Virus record (IMG/VR): IMGVR_UViG_3300037584_001947
Span: 1 to 30,018 of that record
Reading direction: 5' to 3' (one strand)
DNA from: a virus
Taxonomy: Duplodnaviria > Caudoviricetes
Length of the DNA: 30,018 nt
Each line of letters starts with the position of its first letter. The stretch's first letter is position 1. The notes below the pieces were generated by a model. That model saw nothing but the letters and a program-made list of their open reading frames with translations. It was not told the origin of the DNA and did no database searches. The position numbers and the translations under genes were made by a program. Of the stretch, positions 3,134 to 19,565 are shown in pieces.

Positions 3134-3320
3134 AGATTACAAAATAGATGCTATGCATTACTCTGTAGGCCAAGAGGTCTACGGAGGGCATACTATCTGT
3201 GATATTCTTGAAGAAGAAGATAAATATTCTATATACATTAGAAAAGGTAGCAATGTTTTACCTTGGAAAGACTTTAATAAGAATATGGCTATATCTGTTG
3301 AATATAATCTTGAATATTAA
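3090..3320 (+). CDS. hypothetical small beta-rich phage protein
   Basis: Likely start is ATG 3090 or 3093 rather than 3066. Sequence 'KLIRKITIGKDYK..AMHYSVGQEVYGGH'. TAATG-coupled to the GroES-like gene. Confidence 0.65.
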   Translation: MMITTKLIRKITIGKDYKIDAMHYSVGQEVYGGHTICDILEEEDKYSIYIRKGSNVLPWKDFNKNMAISVEYNLEY

Positions 3321-3898
3321 TGCAGAGTCCTTTTTGTTTTGTTATAGAACCTGTAGGTGAGCGATATAACAATTCTGTTTCTGTTGACAATAAAAGTTTA
3401 ATAATAAACACCGAAATATATAATCATGAGTATGTCAATCGCAGAGGCGTTGTTGTTTCTTGCCCTATTGCTGGCAAGCATGATATACTACCTGGTGACG
3501 ACGTTATTGTACATCACAACGTATTTAGAAGATGGCACGATGTTAAAGGACAAGAAAGAAACAGTAAAGCATACTTCAAAGACAACAAGTATATAGTATC
3601 TGCAGATCAAATATTCTTGTACAATAATAAAGCTATGCCTGGTTATTCTTTTGTTCAACCGTTAGTAGATCAAAATAATTTATCTGAAGATAAAGAAGAT
3701 CCTTACAAAGGTGTGATAGTATATAGTGATGGCACTTATAATAAAGGTGAGATTGTAGGTTATACTCCTTTTTCGCAATACGAGTTTATAATAAACAATC
3801 AAAAGCTTTATAGAGTGATGAATAAATTTATTACAATTAAATATGAGCGTAAAGGAAACGAAGAAGTTTATAATCCAAGCTGGGCACAAAGCAGTTAA
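3320..3898 (+). CDS. GroES/Cpn10-like co-chaperonin with two tandem GroES-like units
   Basis: Unit 1: 'FVIEP...RRGVVVSCP...ILPGDDVIV...YIVSADQI'. Unit 2: 'PGYSFVQP...KGVIV...KGEIVGY..FSQYEFIINNQKLYRV..KFI'. Both echo the GroES pattern (VLV.P..G.VV.VG..VKVGD.V..Y...E.DI). Confidence 0.6.
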   Translation: MQSPFCFVIEPVGERYNNSVSVDNKSLIINTEIYNHEYVNRRGVVVSCPIAGKHDILPGDDVIVHHNVFRRWHDVKGQERNSKAYFKDNKYIVSADQIFLYNNKAMPGYSFVQPLVDQNNLSEDKEDPYKGVIVYSDGTYNKGEIVGYTPFSQYEFIINNQKLYRVMNKFITIKYERKGNEEVYNPSWAQSS

Positions 3899-4121
3899 AG
3901 AGTTAATTAAAGTTGCTGAAGAGCAAATAATAACTAATACTGAAGATGATGTTTCTGCTGATAGATTAAAAAACGCTGCAGCTACAAAAAAGCTAGCTAT
4001 ATTCGATGCTTTTGAAATACTTAACCGTATACAAGAAGAGGAAAATATATTAGAAGGTAAAGAAAATAAAGTTAATAAAGATAAAGTGTTTAAAGGCTTT
4101 GCAGAAGGAAGATCTAAGTAA
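3843..4121 (+). CDS. candidate terminase small subunit
   Basis: 92-aa helical protein immediately upstream of TerL and TAATG-coupled to it. The assignment is positional only. Confidence 0.45.
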   Translation: MSVKETKKFIIQAGHKAVKELIKVAEEQIITNTEDDVSADRLKNAAATKKLAIFDAFEILNRIQEEENILEGKENKVNKDKVFKGFAEGRSK

Positions 4122-6334
4122 TGTACGAACAAACACTATATAAAATTGTTGAACCAATTAAGAAGACTACAATAAGTCGACTTAACAAAAAACGTAAATG
4201 GGAATATGGATATAATAAAGAACATGACATCGTGGTTATCTCAAAAACTGGACGCATTGGACAAGTGGTGGAGATTCAAGGTTTGCGAATTGGGTTGCCG
4301 AGTAAACCGCAACAACTGCGAGTGCACAATAACAGATGGGAAAAAATAGATTATCCAAAAGAGTTAAATAAACTTAAAAGTATATTTGACTGGAGAAATT
4401 ATCCAGAAGAAGCAAAAGATCAATGGTACGATTACATAGACGAAGAGTTTAAACGTCGTGACGAAGGCTTTTGGTTTGTAAACAATGATGAGCCAACTTA
4501 TATAACAGGAGCTCACTATATGTATTTGCAATGGAGCAAAATTGATGTTGGTGCTCCTGATTTTAGAGAGGCTAATAGAATATTTTTTATATTTTGGGAA
4601 GCTTGCAAAGCAGACAAACGCTGCTACGGTATGTGCTATTTAAAAAACAGACGTAGCGGCTTTTCTTTTATGAGCTCAGCTGAAACTGTTAACTTAGCTA
4701 CAATATCGAGTGATGCTAGATATGGAATATTATCTAAAAGTGGTGCTGATGCTAAAAAGATGTTTACCGATAAAGTTGTACCAATATCTATCAACTATCC
4801 GTTTTTCTTTAAACCGATACAAGATGGTATGGACAGACCTAAAAGTGAACTTGCTTATCGTGTACCTGCAAGTAAGTTTACGCGTAGAAAAATTACGTCG
4901 AACGAAAAGCAGGAAGAGCTGGTTGGACTTGACACTACTATTGATTGGAAAAACACAGGTGATAACAGCTATGACGGTGAAAAACTTAATCTGTTAGTAC
5001 ACGATGAAAGTGGTAAGTGGGAAAGGCCTGATAATATTTTAAATAACTGGCGAGTAACTAAAACTTGTTTAAGGCTAGGTAGTAGAATTATAGGTAAGTG
5101 TATGATGGGTTCTACTAGCAACTCGCTGGATAAAGGTGGTGATAATTTTAAAAAGCTATATCACGATAGTGATGTAACTAAAAGAAATAGAAATGGTCAA
5201 ACAAAGTCTGGTTTATACTCTTTGTTTATACCAATGGAGTGGAACTATGAGGGATTTATTGACGAGTTTGGACGACCCGTCTTTGATACTCCAACACAAG
5301 AGTGTTATGGACCTCACGGTGAACTAATTGATATAGGTGTTATATCACATTGGGAAAACGAAGTAGAGGGTTTGAAAGACGATCAAGACGCGTTAAACGA
5401 GTTTTATCGACAGTTTCCAAGAACTGAAGAGCACGCGTTTAGAGATGAAACAAAAAATAGTTTGTTTAATCTCGCTAAGATATACGAGCAAGTAGACTAT
5501 AACGAAGGCGTAACTAGCTCGGCAGTTTTAAATACTGGTAATTTCCAGTGGACTAACGGAGTAAAAGACACTACTGTAACTTTTAATCCAGATCCTAACG
5601 GTAGGTTTAAGCTTAGTTGGGTTCCAGATTTTAAGTTGCAAAATAATGTAATAATAAAAAATGGAGTTAAATATCCTGGGAACGAGCACATGGGCGCTTT
5701 TGGCTGCGATAGTTATGATATTAGCGGCACTGTTGATGGTCGAGGATCCAACGGATCTCTTCATGGATTAACTAAGTTTAGTATGGAGTCAGCTCCTGCT
5801 AACACGTTTTTTTTAGAATATATAGCAAGACCACAAACCGCTGAAATATTTTTTGAAGATGTGTTGATGGCGTTAGTATTTTATGGTATGCCACTTCTCG
5901 CAGAGAACAATAAACCAAGATTATTATATCATTTAAAGCGTAGAGGATATAGAGGCTTTAGCATGAATAGACCAGATAAGGTTTGGAATAAATTATCTAC
6001 AGCAGAGAGAGAAGTTGGAGGTATACCAAACTCTAGTGAAGACATTAAGCAAGCTCATGCAGCTGCTATAGAAATGTATATCAACGATCACGTTGGCTTA
6101 ATGCAAGACGGTACTTATGGTACAATGTACTTCACTGAAACTTTAAATGATTGGGCAAAGTTTGACATAAACAAACGTACAAAGTTTGACGCAGCTATAA
6201 GTTCAGGGTTAGCTATAATGGCTTGCAACAGACATTTATATAGACCAGTAAAAGAGAAACAAATAAAACCAGTTAATTTTTCATTTGCTAAGTATAGTAA
6301 TGATGGTGTAAACTCTAAAATAATTAAAAATTAA
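4121..6334 (+). CDS. terL: terminase large subunit
   Basis: Walker A-like 'LKNRRSGFS', Walker B 'LLVHDESGK', motif III 'MMGSTS', and RNase H-like nuclease acidic residues 'GAFGCDSYD', 'LAENN', 'KFDAAIS'. Lies directly upstream of the portal. Confidence 0.92.
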   Translation: MYEQTLYKIVEPIKKTTISRLNKKRKWEYGYNKEHDIVVISKTGRIGQVVEIQGLRIGLPSKPQQLRVHNNRWEKIDYPKELNKLKSIFDWRNYPEEAKDQWYDYIDEEFKRRDEGFWFVNNDEPTYITGAHYMYLQWSKIDVGAPDFREANRIFFIFWEACKADKRCYGMCYLKNRRSGFSFMSSAETVNLATISSDARYGILSKSGADAKKMFTDKVVPISINYPFFFKPIQDGMDRPKSELAYRVPASKFTRRKITSNEKQEELVGLDTTIDWKNTGDNSYDGEKLNLLVHDESGKWERPDNILNNWRVTKTCLRLGSRIIGKCMMGSTSNSLDKGGDNFKKLYHDSDVTKRNRNGQTKSGLYSLFIPMEWNYEGFIDEFGRPVFDTPTQECYGPHGELIDIGVISHWENEVEGLKDDQDALNEFYRQFPRTEEHAFRDETKNSLFNLAKIYEQVDYNEGVTSSAVLNTGNFQWTNGVKDTTVTFNPDPNGRFKLSWVPDFKLQNNVIIKNGVKYPGNEHMGAFGCDSYDISGTVDGRGSNGSLHGLTKFSMESAPANTFFLEYIARPQTAEIFFEDVLMALVFYGMPLLAENNKPRLLYHLKRRGYRGFSMNRPDKVWNKLSTAEREVGGIPNSSEDIKQAHAAAIEMYINDHVGLMQDGTYGTMYFTETLNDWAKFDINKRTKFDAAISSGLAIMACNRHLYRPVKEKQIKPVNFSFAKYSNDGVNSKIIKN
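4206..4349 (+). CDS. candidate nested 47-aa Trp/Cys-rich protein in the +1 frame of terL
   Basis: MDIIKNMTSWLSQKLDALDKWWRFKVCELGCRVNRNNCECTITDGKK*. TerL codons here are atypically G-ending (GTG GTG GAG, TTG CGA, GGG TTG CCG, CTG CGA GTG). Confidence 0.45.
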   Translation: MDIIKNMTSWLSQKLDALDKWWRFKVCELGCRVNRNNCECTITDGKK

Positions 6335-6336
6335 AT

Positions 6337-8685
6337 ATGGCTTACAGAAATACAAATAATTTTCCAAGTCAGGTAGTACCTGATGTAGAAAAAATAAGCT
6401 ACGATTACGGTTTAAAAGTTGCTCAAGCTATCGAAAGCGAATGGTTTGATAGAAATGAAGATGGTAACATTAGAGGCAACGGTAGATTTTATAGTAATAA
6501 AAATAATTTTCACAATTTAAGACTATACGCTAGAGGCGAACAGTCTGTACAGAAATACAAAAACGAATTATCTATAAATGGTGATTTAAGTTTTTTAAAT
6601 TTAGACTGGAAACCTGTACCTGTCATACCTAAGTTTGTAGATATTGTAGTTAACGGCATGGCTGAAAGAAACTATGATATAAAAGTATTTTCACAAGATC
6701 CATACGGCGTAGCTAAAAGGACTGAGTATATGGAAAGCGTGCTTAGAGATATGAAGATGAAGCAGTTCGATACTATGGCTAAGCAACAGCTTAACATGGA
6801 CTTAGCTGAAAACGATCCTGAAACTTTACCAGAGTCAGAGCAAGAGTTAGAGCTTCACATGCAACTTAGCTATAAACAAGCTACAGAGCTAGCTGAAGAA
6901 CAAGCTATCAATGTATTGCTACACGGCAATCAATACGATTTAACTAGAAAAAGACTATATTACGATTTAACAGTTTTAGGTATGGCGGCTGTTAAGACTA
7001 CTTTTACTAAAGCAGAAGGTATAAAAATAGATTATGTTGATCCAGATAGAATAGTACACTCGTATAGTGAGTCGCCATACTTTGACGATGTATACTATGT
7101 AGGTGAGGTTAAAACCGTAGCAGTTAACGAGCTAGTAAAAGAGTTTCCTCATTTAAGTCAAGATGATCTTGAAGAAATACAACAGTACAATAATAGTAGA
7201 ACTTACGAATACAACAAAGGTAGAAGAGATCAAGATATAAATCAAGTTGAAGTATTATACTTTAACTGGAAAACTTATATGAACGAAGTATATAAGTTAA
7301 AAGAAACTAAAACAGGTGGAGAAAAAGCTATAGAAAAAGATGACACTTTTAATCCACCAACAAACATGGAAGGTGGCTTTGCTAAAATATCTAGACAAAT
7401 AGAAGTTATATATGAAGGCGCTATGATAATAGGGTCTGATAAACTTTTAAAGTGGGAGATGGCTGAGAATATGATTAGGCCAAAAAGCGATATGACTAAA
7501 GTTAAAATGAATTATAGTCTTGTTGCTCCACGTATGTATCAAGGTAGAATAGAAAGTTTAGTTGGCCGTATAACAGGCTTTGCTGACATGATACAGCTTA
7601 CACATTTAAAGCTACAGCAAGTAATGGCACGTATGGTGCCAGATGGTGTTTATCTAGACGCTGATGGTTTAGCTGAAATAGATTTAGGTAACGGTACAAA
7701 CTATAACCCACAAGAAGCTTTAAATATGTTCTTCCAAACAGGTAGTGTTATAGGTAGATCATATAATGTTGATGGTGATCCAAATCCAGGTAGAATACCT
7801 ATACAAGAAATATCTAATGGTAAAGGCTCTGGAGGTAAGATGCAAACTCTTATAGCAAACTACAATTACTACATGCAGATGATACGCGATGTGACCGGCT
7901 TAAATGAAGCTAGAGATGGTAGCACGCCTGATAGAAACGCTTTAGTAGGAGTTCAAAAGCTAGCAGCTGCAAATAGTAACACGGCTACAAGACATATATT
8001 ACAAGCTGGCCTATATTTAACAGCTGATGTAGCAGAACAAGTGTCACTACGTATATCAGACATTATTGAATACTCGCCAACTCGAGATGCTTTCTTGCAG
8101 CAAATAGGAGTACATAATGTAGCTACGTTAGAAGAAATGGCTGATTTACATTTGTATGACTTTGGTATATTTATAGAGCTTGCTCCAGACGAAGAAGAGC
8201 GTCAGCTATTAGAAAACAATATACAAATGGCTTTGTCTCAAAAGATAATAAAACTATCAGACGCTATTGATATTAGAAATACTAAAAACGTAAAGCTTGC
8301 CAATGAACTATTAAAAATAAAAGAAAAGAAAAAAGTTCAAGAAGATCAAGCTATGCAGCAGCAAAATATACAAGCGCAGCAGCAAGCTCAACAACAAACA
8401 GCTCAAGCTCAAGCCCAAGCTGAAGCACAGAAGCAACAACAAGTAACTCAAGCTCAAATACAACTTGAGCAGGCAAAAGCAGAGTTCAAAGCTAAAAACC
8501 TACAACAAGAAGCTGACATTAAAAAACAATTAATGGAAGCAGAGTTTCAGTACAATGTAAAGTTAAGAGACATGGAGGCTAAACAGAAAAGTAAGTTAGA
8601 AGGTGAAAAGCAAGAAACAAGTAAAAAATTCGAGTCAGCAGGTAATGATGAACTTAGTACTGGCTTGAATATGGATCAGTTTTAA
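6337..8685 (+). CDS. portal protein
   Basis: 782 aa, between TerL and scaffold/MCP. Helical composition with a Gln/Ala-rich C-terminal coiled coil (P22-like barrel). Confidence 0.85.
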   Translation: MAYRNTNNFPSQVVPDVEKISYDYGLKVAQAIESEWFDRNEDGNIRGNGRFYSNKNNFHNLRLYARGEQSVQKYKNELSINGDLSFLNLDWKPVPVIPKFVDIVVNGMAERNYDIKVFSQDPYGVAKRTEYMESVLRDMKMKQFDTMAKQQLNMDLAENDPETLPESEQELELHMQLSYKQATELAEEQAINVLLHGNQYDLTRKRLYYDLTVLGMAAVKTTFTKAEGIKIDYVDPDRIVHSYSESPYFDDVYYVGEVKTVAVNELVKEFPHLSQDDLEEIQQYNNSRTYEYNKGRRDQDINQVEVLYFNWKTYMNEVYKLKETKTGGEKAIEKDDTFNPPTNMEGGFAKISRQIEVIYEGAMIIGSDKLLKWEMAENMIRPKSDMTKVKMNYSLVAPRMYQGRIESLVGRITGFADMIQLTHLKLQQVMARMVPDGVYLDADGLAEIDLGNGTNYNPQEALNMFFQTGSVIGRSYNVDGDPNPGRIPIQEISNGKGSGGKMQTLIANYNYYMQMIRDVTGLNEARDGSTPDRNALVGVQKLAAANSNTATRHILQAGLYLTADVAEQVSLRISDIIEYSPTRDAFLQQIGVHNVATLEEMADLHLYDFGIFIELAPDEEERQLLENNIQMALSQKIIKLSDAIDIRNTKNVKLANELLKIKEKKKVQEDQAMQQQNIQAQQQAQQQTAQAQAQAEAQKQQQVTQAQIQLEQAKAEFKAKNLQQEADIKKQLMEAEFQYNVKLRDMEAKQKSKLEGEKQETSKKFESAGNDELSTGLNMDQF

Positions 8686-8703: not shown

Positions 8704-9822
8704 ATGGAAGAAAAAGAAATAAAGGACGAAAACATCGTGAAGGTTGATTTAAAAAAGAAACCAGACGAAACAGTTCACAAAGTAGATTTAACTAAAAAAG
8801 AAGAAGAAGATGCCGTTCAGGAGCAAAGCACAGATGAGGTACCTGTTCGCGACGAATCCGAAACTAGCGAAGAAGTACGCGAAGAAGACGAGCAGCCAGC
8901 AATTGAAGAAATTACCGAACAAGCTGAAGAAGAAAAAGAAGAAGAAGAGGTAGTTGAAGAAGTTGTAGCTGAAGAAAAACCAAGCGTAGAACTTCCTGAG
9001 AACATAGAAAAATTAGTTGAATTTATAAACGATACAGGTGGTACTGTTGAAGATTATGTTATGCTAAACAAAGACTTTAGCAATATGGATAACTTAACAG
9101 CTCTTGAAGAGTACTACAAAATTACTAAGCCACATCTAAACGCTGAAGAAAGATCTTTCTTAATGGAAGAAACGTTTAGCTATGATGAAGATGTTGATGA
9201 TAGTAAAGAAGTTAAAAGAAAGAAAATAGCCCTCAAAGAGCAAGTTGCCGAGGCTAAAGCCTACTTAGACAGGCAAAAGTCTAAATATTATGAAGAGATC
9301 AAAGCTGGATCGAAGCTTACAAAAGAGCAACAGAAAGCTATTGACTTCTTCAACAGATATAACAAAGAGTCTGAAGGTGCTCAAAAAAGAAACGAGCATA
9401 TACAGAACGTGTTTAACAAGAAAACATCTAGTCTTTTTTCTGAAAAGTTCAAAGGTTTTGAATATAACGTAGGAGAAAAAAGATTTAGGTTTAATGTTAA
9501 AGATGTTGATAGTGTTAAAGAAACTCAAAGTGATATTGGTAATTTTATCAAAAAGTTTTTGAATAAAGAAGGATCAATAGAAGACGCTGCGGGTTATCAT
9601 AAAGGTTTGTATACCGCTATGAACGCAGATGCTATAGCTCAACACTTTTACGAACAAGGTAAAGCCGATGCTTTAAAAACTTCTGTTGAAAAGTCCAAGA
9701 ATATAAACATGGACCCAAGACAAACTAATAAAGAGGTTAAAGTTGGAGGCACTACATACAAGGTATTAAGTGGAGAGTCTACTTCAGATTTCAAAGTTAA
9801 GATCAAACGAGGTAGAAAATAA
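8704..9822 (+). CDS. capsid scaffolding protein
   Basis: Very acidic, disordered N-terminus, helical core and basic C-terminal tip (KVKIKRGRK). Lies between portal and MCP. Confidence 0.75.
   Translation: MEEKEIKDENIVKVDLKKKPDETVHKVDLTKKEEEDAVQEQSTDEVPVRDESETSEEVREEDEQPAIEEITEQAEEEKEEEEVVEEVVAEEKPSVELPENIEKLVEFINDTGGTVEDYVMLNKDFSNMDNLTALEEYYKITKPHLNAEERSFLMEETFSYDEDVDDSKEVKRKKIALKEQVAEAKAYLDRQKSKYYEEIKAGSKLTKEQQKAIDFFNRYNKESEGAQKRNEHIQNVFNKKTSSLFSEKFKGFEYNVGEKRFRFNVKDVDSVKETQSDIGNFIKKFLNKEGSIEDAAGYHKGLYTAMNADAIAQHFYEQGKADALKTSVEKSKNINMDPRQTNKEVKVGGTTYKVLSGESTSDFKVKIKRGRK
8810..8953 (+). CDS. nested 47-aa basic protein (MPFxSKAQ-type) in the +1 frame of the scaffold gene
   Basis: MPFRSKAQMRYLFATNPKLAKKYAKKTSSQQLKKLPNKLKKKKKKKR*. 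A-rich leader with A at -3 and locally raised GC. The N-terminus matches a small-phage-protein pattern I recall (MPFKSKAQRRYL.A..P..AK). Confidence 0.65.
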   Translation: MPFRSKAQMRYLFATNPKLAKKYAKKTSSQQLKKLPNKLKKKKKKKR

Positions 9823-9851: not shown

Positions 9852-11351
9852 ATGGCAATTTCAAATCCAGGCGCTGGTCACTCCGGCGTCGCAGGTAATT
9901 TGAACAGTGTAGCAGCTCCAAAAAAAGCTCTATTATCTTCAAATTACATTGACTTTACATCTGCTGGCACAAAAGGTTGGGCTCAGCAGTATTTACCAGA
10001 CTTAATTGAGGCTGAAGCAGAAGTGTTCGGTAACAGAACTATTTCAGGTTTCTTGTCTCAAGTAGGTGCTGAAGAGTCTATGACTTCTGACCAAGTTATT
10101 TGGACAGAGCAAGGTAGACTTCACTTATCTTATACAGGTGTTATCAACAATACTACAGGTGTTTTCTCTTGTCAAAAAGATATTGACGGTAATACTTTAA
10201 CTACTGAGCATGGTGTTCGTATTAACGACATGGTTGTTGTAGCTACATCAGAAGGTGTTATCAAGTGTTTGTGTACGGCTGTATCGAACGCTGATATTAC
10301 ACTATTACCTTACGAGCAAGCAAACATCGACGATGCTACTGCTTTCGGTACAGGTACTTCTAATGCTGCTACTATCTTAGTTGTTGGTTCTGAATTTGGT
10401 AAAGGTAAGCAAGGACAAGGCGCTACTACTGCAACTGAAAACAATGGTTTCGGATCTGTAGAACCACAGCACCAGTCTTTTACTAACAAGCCTATCATTA
10501 TTAAAGATTACTACGAGATCAACGGATCTGATGTATCTCAAATCGGTTGGGTAGAAATTTCTGGTGAAGACGGACAGAACGGTTATTTATGGTATTTAAA
10601 AGCTGAAGGCGATACTCGCTCTCGTTTTTCTGACTACTTAGAGATGACTATGATAGAAGCTGTTAAAGGTATTCCTGGAAACTCAACTGCAGAAGGTACT
10701 ATCCGTGCTGCTGGTGATACTTTCGGTACTGAAGGTTTATTCGCTGCTATTGAAGACAGAGGTAACATTACTACTGGTGTAACTGGTGTTAATGCTGCTA
10801 CTGACTTAGCAGAGTTTGACGCTATATTAGCTGAGTTTGACAAGCAAGGTGCTATCGAAGAAAACATGTTATTTGTTAATCGTGCTACAAGTTTAGCTAT
10901 TGACGATATGTTAGCTTCAATGAATTCTTACGGAGCTGGTGGTACATCTTACGGTGTATTCAACAACGACGAAGACATGGCATTGAACTTAGGCTTCTCT
11001 GGTTTCCGTAGAGGATCTTATGACTTCTATAAGTCTGACTTCCGTTACTTAAACGACAAAGCTACTCGTGGATCTATCAATGATAGAGCTGCAGGCTTTG
11101 GTGTTAGAGGAGTTATTATTCCTGCTGGTGTATCAACTGTATACGATCAAACATTAGGTAGAAACTTAAAGCGTCCGTTCTTACACGTACGTTATAGAGC
11201 TTCTCAAATGGACGATAGAAAAATGAAAACTTGGATCACTGGATCTGTTGGTGGAAACATCACTTCTGATCTTGATGCAATGCAAGTAAATTATCTATCT
11301 GAAAGATGTTTAATTGTTCAAGGTGCTAACAACTTCATGTTAATGAAGTAA
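9852..11351 (+). CDS. major capsid protein
   Basis: 499 aa after the scaffold. Strongly biased codon usage (GCT, GGT, TTC, AAC, CGT), followed by a strong terminator. Ends in an HK97-type beta strand 'YLSERCLIVQGANNF'. Confidence 0.88.
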   Translation: MAISNPGAGHSGVAGNLNSVAAPKKALLSSNYIDFTSAGTKGWAQQYLPDLIEAEAEVFGNRTISGFLSQVGAEESMTSDQVIWTEQGRLHLSYTGVINNTTGVFSCQKDIDGNTLTTEHGVRINDMVVVATSEGVIKCLCTAVSNADITLLPYEQANIDDATAFGTGTSNAATILVVGSEFGKGKQGQGATTATENNGFGSVEPQHQSFTNKPIIIKDYYEINGSDVSQIGWVEISGEDGQNGYLWYLKAEGDTRSRFSDYLEMTMIEAVKGIPGNSTAEGTIRAAGDTFGTEGLFAAIEDRGNITTGVTGVNAATDLAEFDAILAEFDKQGAIEENMLFVNRATSLAIDDMLASMNSYGAGGTSYGVFNNDEDMALNLGFSGFRRGSYDFYKSDFRYLNDKATRGSINDRAAGFGVRGVIIPAGVSTVYDQTLGRNLKRPFLHVRYRASQMDDRKMKTWITGSVGGNITSDLDAMQVNYLSERCLIVQGANNFMLMK

Positions 11352-14012: not shown

Positions 14013-17000
14013 ATGCCAGAATTTAATAGAAATTTTGCGCAAGGTAAGATGAATAAAGATCTTGACGAGCGCCTTATTCCAAATGGTCAGTACAGAGACG
14101 CTATGAACGTACAAGTTTCTACTTCAGATGGTAGTAACGTTGGTTCATTAGAAAACATACTAGGCAACGGTCAGCTTTCAACAAACTTAATACCAGAAGG
14201 CGGTTATTGCGTTGGTTCTATAGTTGATAACGAGGTTAACTGCATATATTATTTAGTCGCAGGTAACGAATTTATTCACTCAAGCGGTAATAGAATTGCT
14301 AAAAATTATATCGTAAAGTATAGCATTGACGACAATAATCTTACTTTTGTATTCGTAGATATTTACAAAGTCACTACGCAGGTAACTGGTTTTGTTGCTG
14401 AAGAGGAAATTCTTTTTGGTGAGATTCCTTTTATACAAGTTTCTAGTAGCTACGGTCTAAGAAAAGGTATGGTGTTTGACAACGACAACATCATTACGCG
14501 TGCTTTTGACGATAACAAACTTATTACATCTAATCAAGATGTGCCTGTAGGAACATATACTTTTGAAAAAGAATCTGTTTTAGGTTTTAATAGCGAAACA
14601 AATATAACGGCTATAAATATTGTTGAAGATTTATTAATGTACACAGACAATATTAACGAGCCTAAAACAATAAATATAAAAAGATCTATATTAGGAACAG
14701 GATCAGGAGATGATGTTTTAAATTCAAGCGGCGCAAATAACTCTTCAGATTTTCACACTAGACTTGTCAGTAGAAGAACAGATGGCAGCTTCAATGACGA
14801 AGGATTTGAAGTAGTAACAAACTTTAATATTTTAGAAGCTGGCGTTCCAGTATATTCTGAGCTAGAAAATAATACAACTATAAGAAAAGGTCCTTTAGCT
14901 CCTCCAACTTTAAGAATGTCTTCTTCTACTGTAGAAAGAGAGCTTAGAGTAGACAGTCCTTTTAATCCAGTAGAATCACCTTTCTTTATTATTTCCGGTG
15001 GACAAGCTACTCAAGTACCTTCTGGATCTGGATTTACTTTACAAACAGACGAGCCTGTTAGCTATTTTGTTGGAGACTTTATATTAATAACACAAGACTT
15101 AACTCAACCACCTACGTCTTTTACAGATCACGATGTTAGAGTTAGAGTAGATGCTGTTAATAGCAATACAAACTTTGACGTTACTATACTAGCTATAGCT
15201 GATGACTTAGATACATCAACTGGTTTTCTTACTATATTAGAACAGCCAGATCCTTTGTTTGAATTTAAGTTTCCAAGGTTTTCTTATAGATATAAGTATG
15301 TAGACGGTCAATATTCTGCGTTTGCTCCTTTTTCTGAAGTAGCTTTTTTACCTGGGCCATACGAATATTATCCTAAAGAAGGATATAACTTAGGTATGGC
15401 TAATAGAGTTAGAAGTTTAAGAGTAGAGAACTACGCTCCATTTCCTGATCACAGGCCTAAAGATATAGTAGAAATAGACGTGCTATACAAAGAAGAAGGA
15501 TCTACCACAGTCTATACTGTTAAAACTATAAAACCTTCAGACGGATCACCACTTTGGCCACTCAGCACAGCGCTTGGTGGATATAGTGTAAGCGCAGGAA
15601 GTGCTATCAACGATGGATTAGTATTTAGAGGTAGTCTAAATATAGAGTCAGAATTAATACATGCTGTAGTTCCAGCCAATCAATTATTAAGACCTTGGGA
15701 TAATGTTCCTAGAAAAGCTTTAGCTCAAGAAGTTTCAGCTAATAGATTAATATATGCTAACTATGTTCAAAACTACGATCTTGTAGATTCAAGTAATAAA
15801 CTATTAACGCCTGAGCTTAAAGTAGGTTTAGTTTCAAAATCTTACGGCGATCCTGGAATATCACCTAACATAGGTGTTCCTTTTAAATCTATAAAAACAC
15901 AAAGAACATATCAGCTAGGAGTTGTATACAAAGACGAGTTTGGTAGAGAAACACCTGTACTAGCAGACAAAGAAAAAGGATCTTTTACTGTAGGCAAAGA
16001 GTTTTGTGATAATTTAAACTCGCTTAAAGTTAGTGTTTTAAATAGCGCACCAACTTGGGCTAAATCTTTTAAATTTTTTATAAAAGAAACCTCTAATGAA
16101 TATTACAACTTAGCAATGGATCGTTGGTACAATGCTGAAGATGGTAATATATGGTTGTCTTTTCCTTCGTCTGATAGAAATAAAGTTGATGAAGAAACAT
16201 TTTTAGAATTAAAGAAAGCGCACGATAGTGATGTAGTTGTAGAACAGCCTGCTAGATATAAGATACTAGCTATTAGCAATGAAGCTCCTGAATTTATAAA
16301 GCTTCAAAGAAAAAGTTTAGGTACACTACTAAACTCTTCGCATGATGGAGTAGATGATAATCAAATTGGTAGCGCTGCAATAGGTTATCCTATATCCGGT
16401 GAAAATTTAATACATATAAGAAGAAACGCTTTTGAAGAAAACTTTGATCCAGACGTGGTTTTACCTATAGCTTCTGATTGCTCTGTAAAAATAAGAACAA
16501 TAACAGGAGAGTTTAGTAAGTACTACGACATAGTAAGTATAAAGAAAGATAATATCTTTGGTCAAGACGACGATGGCTATAAAATAACTATATCAGACAC
16601 TTTTGACCCTGACGTAAACAATGTTACTGGTGGATCTTTTACGCCAGCTACAAATAGACTAGGATTACAAATAGAGATAGTTCAAAACGAAATTGAAAAT
16701 AAACCTGAGTTTGAAGGTAAGTTCTTTGCTAAGATATACAAAGATCAAATCATAGAAGATTTTATTATGATATTAGACGACGAAAGAAATTTAGTCGTTG
16801 TCGATGCTTATGAAACTAGTTACCTTCATACTTACAATGGTGATGATTCTAATCCATACAGTGGTGTTAACTTAGGCCCACACACAAATAACTCTGCGGC
16901 TGGTGTTGCTATAAATGTTAGAAATCAGTGGAGAGATTCTCAAGCAACAGAAGGCCATCAAAACCCGTATAAAACTAGCTACACTTGGGGTGATAATGCT

Positions 17001-19565
17001 AATTACGGAGGACCTCAGATAGGTGGAGCTTTTAACGTAAGACACACTAGCTCAGGAGATCTTCTTGGAAACGACGACTGGGGTATTGGAAAAGGTGATT
17101 TTGCTTATGATTTTTGGCATAGATATTTTACAAGTAGTGGTAGAGCAAACATATTTATAGATGATGCTTGGGCTTTAACGTGGAGACAAACTCCACATAC
17201 ATTAACCAACGTTACTGCTGAAGATCCTAACGACTCTAGCCCTTATCATAACGCGCCAAATCATAACGGTGATTTTAATGCTGGTATGCCTAACTTAACA
17301 GAGCAAGCAAGATGGGACGATGGTAATGGGTTTGCTAAAAATGGATCTAGAGGTATAAGAGGTAATTTAATGGACATATCTGTTACAGGTGGTTTTCATG
17401 GGCGGTTTAATGGAGACAAATGGGAAGGAGATGAGTTTGATTTAGCTAATCCAGCGGCTATGCAATTTTTAAATCCATACATATTACATGACGGAGATAA
17501 TAAAGATGAATATAATTTTTTAAGATCTTTAACTTTGCCTGGAATAAAATGGAGATTCAAAGAAGATCCAGACAAAACTATATATGAAGTTACAAAAGCA
17601 TATAAACACTATGGTATTATAAACTATCAGCTAGCAAACTCTGACCTTGGAATTGGAGCAGCAAATCCTATTGAAGTTGCTTGGTATCTTAATAACATAG
17701 CTGCTGCAAACGCAGATGTTCTTTTTGGTGGAGATGGTTTTAATATAAGGCCTGGTATTGCAATTGGCTCACCTCTATCGCGATACCAGATAGAATCTAA
17801 TAAAAGAAATAAATTTACAATTGCGGTTGACAAACCTTTTGCTTGGGATCCTAGATCTACAATAGCTCACGATGGTACAGAGACAGTAACTATACAAATA
17901 TTAGGTAGATACGGAAACGAAGATATTGGTTTTTCTTCTGATAATCCAGCGGTATGGGAAACTAAACCTAAAGAAGAAATAGAGTTAGATATATACTATG
18001 AAGTTAGTAGAGCTTATCCTATAGAAATAGAATCAAATAATGAAGAAACTGTTTTGATTCCAGGCTATGCAGACTTAGTATCTGTTGCTGGTAATTTAGA
18101 GCCTAATTTTAATAGAGTTAATAGTTTAAGGTATTTTTCAGGTTCAGAAAACGCTAGTATTTCTCTCACTAATCCTATTACTGCAAACGTAGGTGCTGAG
18201 CTATTGATTAACGATGGATATGGTGGGCAGATAACTTTAGTTGTAGCTCAATTAGTTAACAATAGTACGCGTGTAAATGTTAATAGAAGGTTTCACTCTG
18301 CTTTTACAGAGATAACCTTACCTTGGCATAACTGCTATGTGTTTGGAAACGGTGTAGAGTCTGATAGAATAAGAGATGATTTTAATCAACCAACTATACA
18401 AAACGGTGTAAAAGCTTCTACAACAATAGCAGAACAATACAAAGAAGAAAGAAGATCGCAAAGCTTTATATTTTCTGGTATATTCAACAGCTTGTCAGGT
18501 GTTAATAGATTAAATCAATTTATACAAGCAGAGCCTATAACTAAAGATCTTGACCCTGATAACGGTAGTATACAAAAGTTATTTACTAGAGATACTGACA
18601 TAATAACGTTTTGTGAAGACAAAGTGTTGAAAGTTTTGTCTGATAAAGATGCTTTATTTGAGTCAGGTGGTAATGCTCAGCTAACCGCTGCAAATAAAGT
18701 TTTAGGTCAAGCTATTGCTTTTGGAGGTGACTATGGAATATCTAAAAATCCCGAAAGTTTTGCCGCAGATAAATATCGATGTTACTTTACAGATACTCAA
18801 AGAGGCGCTGTAATAAGATTATCTAAAGACGGTATGACACCAATATCAGATTATGGTATGAAAGATTATTTTACAGACACGTTTAATAATATAAGAGATA
18901 TTAGATTAATTGGAACTTTTGATCAAAGAAAAGATAATTATAACTTAACAATATCAAGCAAGGGTCGAAGAGCTAGTTTTTTAAAAGCAATAGAGCCAAC
19001 GACTATAACTTACAATGAGCAAGTCAAAGGCTGGGTAAGTTTTAAAAGCTTTCACCCTGAGTCTGGAGTTGGTGTAAACAATGATTACTACACTTTTAAA
19101 AACGGATCTCTATGGAAGCATCACACTAATGCTAATAGAAACGATTTTTATAGCGAAGGATTTGTACCGTCGCATGTAGAAATATTATTTAACGATGCTC
19201 CTAGCTCTGTTAAAAACTTTCAAACTATAAAATACGAAGGCACTCAAGCTAAAGTAGATAGAGACACGAGTGATGATCAATACTATAACTTGTCAACTAA
19301 ACGAGGTTGGTACGTTGACTTTGCGTTTACAGATCTTCAAGACGGCAAAGTTCCTGAGTTCATAGATAAAGAAGGTAAATGGTTTAACTTTATAAAAGGA
19401 GCGTGCACTGACTTTAATAACTTAGACGAAAAAGAGTTTACAGTACAAGGCATTGGGCAAGCAGAGAGCATACAGCACAGTAGTCCGGGCGAGCTAGCTC
19501 CAGTTTCTAAAAGAGTTATATTTAGAGACTCAAACTTTAGCGTAACAGGAGAAAATTGGGATTAA
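14013..19565 (+). CDS. tail stabilisation / nozzle (muzzle-like) protein
   Basis: N-terminal 'F..GKMNKDLDERLIPNGQYRDAMN' and C-terminal propeller-like 'YGISKNPESFA...YFTDTQRGAVIRLS.DG' are typical of P22 gp10 / crAss-like stabilisation proteins. 1850 aa, beta-rich. Confidence 0.7.
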   Translation: MPEFNRNFAQGKMNKDLDERLIPNGQYRDAMNVQVSTSDGSNVGSLENILGNGQLSTNLIPEGGYCVGSIVDNEVNCIYYLVAGNEFIHSSGNRIAKNYIVKYSIDDNNLTFVFVDIYKVTTQVTGFVAEEEILFGEIPFIQVSSSYGLRKGMVFDNDNIITRAFDDNKLITSNQDVPVGTYTFEKESVLGFNSETNITAINIVEDLLMYTDNINEPKTINIKRSILGTGSGDDVLNSSGANNSSDFHTRLVSRRTDGSFNDEGFEVVTNFNILEAGVPVYSELENNTTIRKGPLAPPTLRMSSSTVERELRVDSPFNPVESPFFIISGGQATQVPSGSGFTLQTDEPVSYFVGDFILITQDLTQPPTSFTDHDVRVRVDAVNSNTNFDVTILAIADDLDTSTGFLTILEQPDPLFEFKFPRFSYRYKYVDGQYSAFAPFSEVAFLPGPYEYYPKEGYNLGMANRVRSLRVENYAPFPDHRPKDIVEIDVLYKEEGSTTVYTVKTIKPSDGSPLWPLSTALGGYSVSAGSAINDGLVFRGSLNIESELIHAVVPANQLLRPWDNVPRKALAQEVSANRLIYANYVQNYDLVDSSNKLLTPELKVGLVSKSYGDPGISPNIGVPFKSIKTQRTYQLGVVYKDEFGRETPVLADKEKGSFTVGKEFCDNLNSLKVSVLNSAPTWAKSFKFFIKETSNEYYNLAMDRWYNAEDGNIWLSFPSSDRNKVDEETFLELKKAHDSDVVVEQPARYKILAISNEAPEFIKLQRKSLGTLLNSSHDGVDDNQIGSAAIGYPISGENLIHIRRNAFEENFDPDVVLPIASDCSVKIRTITGEFSKYYDIVSIKKDNIFGQDDDGYKITISDTFDPDVNNVTGGSFTPATNRLGLQIEIVQNEIENKPEFEGKFFAKIYKDQIIEDFIMILDDERNLVVVDAYETSYLHTYNGDDSNPYSGVNLGPHTNNSAAGVAINVRNQWRDSQATEGHQNPYKTSYTWGDNANYGGPQIGGAFNVRHTSSGDLLGNDDWGIGKGDFAYDFWHRYFTSSGRANIFIDDAWALTWRQTPHTLTNVTAEDPNDSSPYHNAPNHNGDFNAGMPNLTEQARWDDGNGFAKNGSRGIRGNLMDISVTGGFHGRFNGDKWEGDEFDLANPAAMQFLNPYILHDGDNKDEYNFLRSLTLPGIKWRFKEDPDKTIYEVTKAYKHYGIINYQLANSDLGIGAANPIEVAWYLNNIAAANADVLFGGDGFNIRPGIAIGSPLSRYQIESNKRNKFTIAVDKPFAWDPRSTIAHDGTETVTIQILGRYGNEDIGFSSDNPAVWETKPKEEIELDIYYEVSRAYPIEIESNNEETVLIPGYADLVSVAGNLEPNFNRVNSLRYFSGSENASISLTNPITANVGAELLINDGYGGQITLVVAQLVNNSTRVNVNRRFHSAFTEITLPWHNCYVFGNGVESDRIRDDFNQPTIQNGVKASTTIAEQYKEERRSQSFIFSGIFNSLSGVNRLNQFIQAEPITKDLDPDNGSIQKLFTRDTDIITFCEDKVLKVLSDKDALFESGGNAQLTAANKVLGQAIAFGGDYGISKNPESFAADKYRCYFTDTQRGAVIRLSKDGMTPISDYGMKDYFTDTFNNIRDIRLIGTFDQRKDNYNLTISSKGRRASFLKAIEPTTITYNEQVKGWVSFKSFHPESGVGVNNDYYTFKNGSLWKHHTNANRNDFYSEGFVPSHVEILFNDAPSSVKNFQTIKYEGTQAKVDRDTSDDQYYNLSTKRGWYVDFAFTDLQDGKVPEFIDKEGKWFNFIKGACTDFNNLDEKEFTVQGIGQAESIQHSSPGELAPVSKRVIFRDSNFSVTGENWD

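Follow-up and report, generated by a model that had tools for sequence, protein, structure and literature searches.

Genes that lie out of frame within other genes are already known in phages, as in Rz1 within Rz of lambda and E within D of phiX174, and so is PHROG 1375, a family that has been catalogued with no assigned function. The gene described here shares same-strand nesting, an own start, and two coding frames with Rz1, E, and the ORFs embedded in genes of phage Patience, but unlike these it belongs to a widespread family that also occurs stand-alone and nests in non-homologous hosts, and its slot is swapped for an unrelated cargo among close relatives. The Patience genes that contain embedded ORFs are 91 and 20 (available text of PMC4324244). 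The proteins of PHROG 1375 and PHROG 5320 (Barnyard gp9, Patience gp10, Colbert gp74, and gp3 of Gordonia phage Button) have the same core motif as the present gene product and may share its predicted fold; however, the annotated members are stand-alone, with an N-terminal basic extension and Trp-rich helices, whereas the present gene starts at the MP of the motif and is located wholly inside the +1 frame of another gene. The capsid targeting tag of T4 is ∼10 residues long and is cleaved, whereas the module of the present family comprises ∼38 residues, is predicted to be folded, and is usually the whole protein. According to PMC3012670, the T4 internal proteins are also small, basic, and linked to the head, where their lysines contact DNA phosphates, and the targeting sequence is likewise a conserved N-terminal module on diverse tails. 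The internal capsid stabilizer gp4 of Patience and Adjutor is a small capsid-associated protein found in clusters AC, D, H, and R (available part of PMC11965321). The present family also occurs in actinophages with a Patience-like gene order, but identity with gp4 was rejected: gp4 matches phrog_12672 only, the family member of Patience is gp10, and there is no PDB hit. The literature searched holds no report of the PHROG 1375 family nested in virion genes, and supplementary files beyond it could hold peptide evidence; nor does it report a two-cargo slot, the available portions of PMC7886860 and PMC7150772 included.

The window, the whole stretch of 30,018 nucleotides analyzed here (positions 1 to 30,018 of IMG/VR record IMGVR_UViG_3300037584_001947), is the virion module of an Elemovirus-related marine phage. 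Its gene order is that of Elemovirus, and the sequencing runs containing its DNA are marine. The product of the host gene is 38% identical to an Elemovirus "structural protein" encoded between the portal and capsid genes, has no PHROG, Pfam, or PDB match, and carries 40 Asp and Glu within residues 1–97; it is scaffold-like by position and acidity only. Its relatives were found in 68 Elemovirus, seven Cellulophaga, and one Maribacter phage records and in one uncultured record, the homologues in cultured phages being annotated "structural protein", and those phages with known hosts are phages of Bacteroidota only. Upstream of the terminase gene lie a GroES-like gene (3320–3898, phrog_13932, E 2e-10) and a weak holin match (1196–1618, phrog_3427, E 2e-4). 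No family member is nested in the part of the giant ORF that falls within the window.

The preliminary description had proposed a basic microprotein gene hidden in the acidic N terminus of the scaffold, and its ORF, from ATG 8810 to TAG 8953, was recovered with exactly the 47-residue translation given there (Table 1). The peptide, hereafter type A, has a pI of 11.4, with 19 Lys and Arg and no Asp or Glu. An HMM search with the full 47 residues, as had been proposed, matched PHROG 1375 (E 2.6e-7, profile positions 17–41 of 70); because residues 1–27 alone give E 6.4e-7, the Lys tail is not the cause of this match. The earlier suggestion that the poly-Lys tail is a by-product of GAA repeats is plausible: the +1 frame of scaffold codons 1–97 contains 39 Lys and Arg in 97 positions, and the tails differ among relatives. 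AlphaFold2 predicted a three-helix mini-domain (pLDDT 89.3, pTM 0.59) with helices at residues 6–15, 17–26, and 29–33. Foldseek against BFVD gave no match at E 0.001 or better, the best being an uncultured phage 44-mer (E 1.5e-3, TM 0.89), with Barnyard gp9 (Q856G3) at rank 7 (TM 0.67, E 0.18). By fold, the PDB yielded a best VIA Z of 2.6 among 48,161 chains, a value that speaks neither for novelty nor for kinship, and by sequence it yielded designed β-propellers and, at E 1 or worse, eL34, both regarded as chance repeat matches. The nested peptide had no match in Pfam, a Pfam search over 71 family members returned 17 weak families, all far from cut-off, and no nucleic acid-binding fold was recognized. 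DUF3008 (PF11450) was a lead only (Atlas score 0.87), the term occurring in no paper found and 0 of the 71 members matching at E 0.5 or better; any kinship with it would have to be remote.

Table 1. Features of the window and of related loci (window positions unless a locus is named)
Feature	Location	Strand	Remarks
Terminase large subunit gene	4121..6334	+	phrog_6681, E 2.5e-173
Portal protein gene, upstream of host gene	6337..8685	+	phrog_6547, E 1e-149
Host gene, scaffold-like, 372 aa	8704..9822	+	Position between portal and capsid genes; acidic N terminus, conserved core
In-frame (+1) stop TAA 8789-8791, then A-rich leader, A at -3	8789..8809	+	Initiation-compatible, not diagnostic
Exchangeable slot, approximate limits	8797..8910	+	L001 matches both flanks and holds an unrelated type-B ORF inside
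Nested microprotein gene, type A (PHROG 1375-like)	8810..8953	+	47 aa, +1 frame of scaffold-like gene 8704-9822
Conserved family core, residues 1-38 (MP-x-x-S..AQ.R helix, P, helix, LP[EN]K)	8810..8923	+	Alignments and AlphaFold2
Variable Lys tail and stop	8924..8953	+	Probably mostly by-product of scaffold-frame GAA repeats
Probable major capsid protein gene, downstream of host gene	9852..11351	+	phrog_13704 "virion structural protein", E 5e-102; position as in Elemovirus
crAss-type muzzle-like gene	14013-19565		Window
Giant ORF, runs off window, >2,057 aa	23846-30016		No PHROG match
Type-B ORFs	L001:2604-2723, L012:2559-2681, and 39 other scaffold relatives		Under selection
Nested family member, unannotated, giant structural gene of Elemovirus	L081:6001-6129 = NC_062741.1 53458-53586		
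Nested family member, +1 of giant structural gene, complete freshwater phage genome	L252:3001-3132		
Stand-alone members absent from GenBank annotation	P-RSP2 L084:4004-4123; S-CBS2 L085:4001-4111		

Two properties of the DNA had been put forward in favor of the gene. The atypical GC-rich scaffold codons over the block are indeed rare in genome-wide counts (GCC in 31 of 679 Ala, CGC in 15 of 396 Arg, and TCC in 12 of 590 Ser codons), and the third-position GC of scaffold codons is 10/24 in the nested block as against 79/290 in the core. The A-rich leader does have A at −3, as do 16 of 21 type-A genes, but is weaker evidence than claimed, internal ATGs often scoring alike: 23% of 339 internal out-of-frame ATGs score at least as high as the nested start on a matrix built from the 21 starts of the window, and 15% are as unstructured. 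The initiation context of the nested gene is only average and non-discriminating.

The two frames were compared over a minimum spanning tree of 81 distinct type-A scaffold-like genes (88 complete rows before duplicate removal). In the 24-codon block, 83 changes were silent only in the nested frame, 24 only in the scaffold frame, and 25 in neither, whereas the corresponding numbers in the core of the same genes were 1,089, 3,192, and 2,409 (Fisher p 1e-28, a value that overstates independence, as the sequences on the tree are related and recombining). Per-site rates in the block were 5.8 for nested-silent, 1.35 for scaffold-silent, and 0.69 for changes silent in neither, corresponding to constraint ratios of 0.12 (0.69/5.78) in the nested frame and 0.51 (0.69/1.35) in the scaffold frame. 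With constraint of ∼0.12 on the peptide and ∼0.5 on the scaffold, the scaffold is therefore the weaker frame there, and over the block the host frame appears to be the passenger. Across 20 distinct type-A blocks, the first, second, and third scaffold codon positions are variable in 13, 6, and 6 of 22 columns, respectively, the first being the wobble position of the nested frame; in the core of these genes the numbers are 121, 89, and 226 of 242. The constraint on synonymous sites for which the preliminary description suggested looking is present, the wobble pattern following the nested frame in the 81 distinct genes. Outside the search pattern, seven pairs of giant-gene hosts show this inversion as well, with 10 nested-silent changes versus 6, compared with 209 versus 513 in the flanks (p 0.009). 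As judged from these substitutions, 8810–8953 is a nested gene under purifying selection, selected more strongly than the scaffold frame. It is very probably a real, translated gene.

The scaffold stretch DAVQEQSTDEVPVRDE, earlier read as the shadow of this gene, largely is so. In one DNA sequencing run, contigs of other phages pile up on 8829–8875, with a summed depth of 3,536 versus 51–79 in nearby bins, and this interval is an island of conserved DNA within a variable region. The matching material in RNA sequencing runs consists of unstranded contig pieces of relatives, which carry neither strand nor level, and RNA runs with a small share carry no weight. At 8899–8922 the motifs of the two frames coincide, the near-invariant EE[IV]TE of the scaffold (E69) reading in +1 as the LKKLP[NE]K of the family.

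The resemblance of the N terminus to a widespread stand-alone phage protein, noted in the preliminary description, was borne out. The variant pattern MPFKSKAQRR occurs at 83 loci in viral contigs, duplicates included, versus two in cellular genomes, both stand-alone in MAG contigs. Fifty-five of the 83 are stand-alone, 23 are +1-nested (seven in the scaffold-like gene and 16 in giant genes), and five lie in +2 (L166, L171, L183, L196, and L203), in short overlapping frames of ∼100–120 codons that were not counted as nested. Annotated stand-alone copies are Button gp3, Barnyard gp9, Patience gp10 (a phrog_1375 member, E 1e-31), Colbert gp74, and 201phi2-1 gp383, and the homologue in PLot and Chill is also gp10. 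Reciprocally, the profile of the nested-peptide family finds Barnyard gp9 (E 3.8e-8), Button gp3 (3.5e-7), and Patience gp10 (4.9e-4). Family homologues number 92, and the family profile reaches 4,761 clusters (50% identity) at E 0.001 or better. Carriers include Flavobacterium, cyanobacterial, Mycobacterium, Gordonia, and Pseudomonas jumbo phages; the family was not found in crAss001, phi14:2, or phiKZ (0/3), and H237, in frame inside a 700-residue gene (E 3), was set aside as a chance match. When the type-A alignment was used as query, 552 of 599 candidates were confirmed. The best 80 of the 552, a set that is biased to scaffold-nested copies and repeats some contigs of the host-gene relatives, include 79 new loci, every one of them +1-nested; 78 match the scaffold core by BLAST, and the remaining one is cut by a contig end. 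The S-CBS2 member sits within a run of small basic genes.

The giant host genes have no BLAST link to the scaffold and, over the stretches compared, form five groups without mutual matches. In these hosts the shadow of the family contains 26% Asp and Glu versus 17%, and 6% hydrophobic residues versus 21%. Cultured Elemoviruses have nothing in the scaffold slot and carry a 42-residue member nested in the +1 frame of a 3,694-residue structural gene, an arrangement also seen in the complete freshwater phage genome.

The contents of the slot were determined in the window and the best 80 of 468 confirmed relatives of the host gene, 81 in all. Type A was present in 21, an unrelated basic ORF (type B) in 41, and neither in 19, a regular expression having first given 40 type B and 20 neither before a profile moved L071 to type B; the two types never co-occur in the slot of these 81. 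Loss of the ATG or of the open frame, named in the preliminary description as grounds for refutation, is not seen: both are kept in 81 of 81 distinct type-A genes, a set picked by a motif that includes Met. However, 60 of the 81 scaffold relatives are without the gene. Type B, with the pattern M..LT..EWL...P.P..NKKKY.RK.KHK, occupies the same place in the +1 frame and displays the same inversion, its third positions varying in 14 of 27 versus 233 of 238. It matches phrog_6310 and DUF7230 weakly (DUF7230 below cut-off); its basic tail is one that we take to resemble the ribosome-rescue factor ArfA, and no Pfam ArfA match was obtained at E 3 or better.

Among the best 80 relatives, the nearest core to that of the window is L001 (89% identical, support 98), which carries type B, and in a DNA alignment of the two the flanks match around a divergent block. 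On a quick tree of 88 scaffold cores, which core recombination could blur and on which gain and loss are not distinguishable, a minimum of 23 changes is required to account for the three slot states (13 for A, 19 for B, and 11 for none), and well-supported branches alone force 9, 11, and 6, respectively; the states are more clustered than shuffled labels. The slot is repeatedly exchanged among type A, type B, and nothing. None of five type-B or empty-slot records, two of them at least 90% complete, holds a type-A copy elsewhere, by a search whose positive control returned 5/5, and the type-A gene is dispensable in the lineage of the window. L088, which is near-identical to the phage of the window, has a nested A and a separate stand-alone B-like gene, and a weak stand-alone B-like match was seen in two of four type-A records; a type-B search in five partial type-A records gave an uninformative 0/5. 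The stand-alone B-like basic genes (L263:1447–1575, of the L088 record, and L262:1411–1560) are located among small genes outside the virion module.

The best explanation as a whole, to which we attach about even confidence, is a selected second gene of PHROG 1375 that is translated from its own ATG into a basic peptide binding nucleic acid in the assembling head. Since members occur by themselves in many lineages and nested in unrelated hosts, the stand-alone small gene would be the older frame and would have been absorbed later, entering the scaffold linker by recombination. The disordered acidic linker would tolerate such an insertion because a Lys-rich gene read one base earlier becomes rich in Glu, Gln, and Thr and poor in hydrophobic residues. 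The peptide would then be produced by internal initiation at its own ATG on late head-operon mRNA, has the predicted structure of a small, basic hairpin of helices, and would bind nucleic acid inside the assembling head, with nesting tying its timing and dose to head assembly at zero cost in genome length. That the product is a late, nucleic acid-binding head peptide is an evenly balanced proposition, and a role in the head or on packaged DNA may equally hold or fail; the DNA-binding or core peptide of the preliminary description thus remains a proposal. In favor of such a role are the head and virion genes around most annotated copies, the charge of the peptide, and the lysine–DNA contacts in T4 heads, and against it are the annotation of 201phi2-1 gp383, the copies outside head modules, and the dispensability of the gene in this lineage.

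Protein evidence comes from Patience gp10, for which Table S1 of PMC4324244 gives stringent mass spectra of one in particles, four at 30 min, and two at 150 min. In the available text of PMC4324244, three spectra of Patience gp21 are called possible contamination by the authors, and the virion count of gp10 is lower than this. Patience gp10 is expressed, whereas the virion evidence, from one spectrum, is weak, although trypsin would under-detect such a Lys-rich peptide. The 201phi2-1 member gp383 carries no virion-protein annotation, unlike its neighbor gp382. Patience genes 111, 10, and 12 (L250:6881–7944) are tiny Arg/Lys-rich genes right after the portal gene, and gp111 and gp12 have 33 virion spectra each.

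This thin virion evidence favors an alternative in which a real gene encodes a late factor directed at the host, such as one binding ribosomes or RNA, the head operon merely giving high late expression. A universal target would suit a family that spans phages with unrelated capsids and hosts, but packaged DNA is likewise a universal target. The alternative cargo B, with its weak matches to phrog_6310 and DUF7230 and its presumably ArfA-like tail, points the same way; however, neither type has a Pfam ArfA or ribosomal-protein match, and the presence of nested A and a stand-alone B-like gene together in L088 suggests that the two may differ in function. Some copies do lie outside head modules, upstream of ribonucleotide reductase (L169) or beside glycosyltransferases (L174 and L203), and Colbert gp74 is the last in a series of hypothetical genes in the right arm. 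Against this, most annotated neighbors are head or virion genes (56 host and neighbor proteins scanned), with copies between portal and head-assembly genes (L180 and L209), adjoining capsid genes (L168 and L238), near terminase genes (L166, L202, and Button gp3), directly after giant genes (L165, L178, L190, and L207), and, in Patience, two genes after the portal. A host-directed factor is unlikely, but has to be taken seriously.

The module also occurs on longer proteins, 69 of 145 new top profile matches being at least 100 residues long (P0096–P0238). It starts at residue 1 in 65 of the 69, and the tails are unrelated, forming 53 BLAST clusters, with seven matching DUF5661 and two a minor head/DNA pilot family. 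The motif K-x-A-[A/S/E], a candidate processing site, follows the module in 25 of the 69 versus a shuffle mean of 7.2 and maximum of 15, in a test chosen after the sequences had been viewed; E-[SA]-hydrophobic follows it in 11 of the 69, not above the shuffle maximum of 11. The position of the module, the diversity of its tails, the two pilot-like tails, and the candidate site would all fit an N-terminal capsid-targeting tag that attaches to the scaffold core, the portal, the inner face of the capsid, or another part of the prohead and can carry fused cargo into the head, much as T4 loads diverse proteins into the scaffolding core by a conserved targeting sequence (available text of PMC3012670). 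However, a single protein partner is hard to square with the unrelated capsid and scaffold proteins of the carriers, most family members have no tail, and the motif test was post hoc; a tag of this kind is more doubtful still.

The +1 frame might instead be entered at the A-run upstream of the ATG, through a ribosomal frameshift or slippage during transcription, yielding a fusion of the scaffold N terminus and the basic peptide. This would agree with the A-runs that precede the nested ATG and with seven of the 92 homologues, which are such fusions (P0005–P0008, P0010, P0017, and P0030), but all seven are single-member clusters from one contig each, as homopolymer errors would give. The nested ORFs of the 81 genes have lengths of 43–60, and because an in-frame stop lies 1–15 codons before the ATG in all 81, initiation at the nested ATG is favored over frameshifting; in 19 of the 81, the stop is 1–2 codons away and leaves hardly any room. 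Moreover, Met is invariant in these genes and is residue 1 in stand-alone members, and stand-alone and fused family members begin with the same MP motif. Frameshifting or slippage is very improbable.

The scaffold protein was recoded synonymously 2,000 times with codons drawn at random from genome usage; 100 of the recodings keep 39 codons open, and the best scores 32.7 bits versus 75.4 for the real sequence, a score inflated somewhat by a profile that includes the peptide of the window itself. It is hardly credible that the ORF shadows a conserved motif of the scaffold by chance, or that it is a dead remnant and untranslated: although a 42-codon stop-free run has p ∼0.015 at the local stop rate and Glu-rich DNA yields Lys-rich +1 frames, none of the 2,000 recodings comes near the score of the real sequence, variation at wobble positions matches the nested frame, and this peptide is encoded both on its own and nested within non-homologous hosts.

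The preferred reading, a selected nested gene for a basic peptide of the assembling head, can be widened only tentatively. Acidic disordered linkers of virion genes might be +1 parking slots, where recombination adds, exchanges, and removes small basic genes while the host frame stays intact, the passenger here being a universal N-terminal capsid-loading or DNA-riding module that occurs alone or as a cargo tag in thousands of phages. If so, recurrent acidic "motifs" in virion proteins would be shadows of unannotated virion microproteins.

What this locus contributes is the swap relative to its nearest relative, in which two unrelated cargoes replace each other in the slot of phages whose host genes are 89% identical, together with the pattern of N-terminal fusions. 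All nested copies of the family escape gene callers, those of 68 cultured Elemovirus records among them, and because the stand-alone copies of P-RSP2 and S-CBS2 were missed as well, annotations lack an abundant marine phage protein. The proposed route to overlapping genes would be unlike de novo overprinting, an existing gene being absorbed into a tolerant linker, and a family of >4,700 clusters with no assigned function becomes testable in cultured, non-pathogenic systems such as Elemovirus and Patience.
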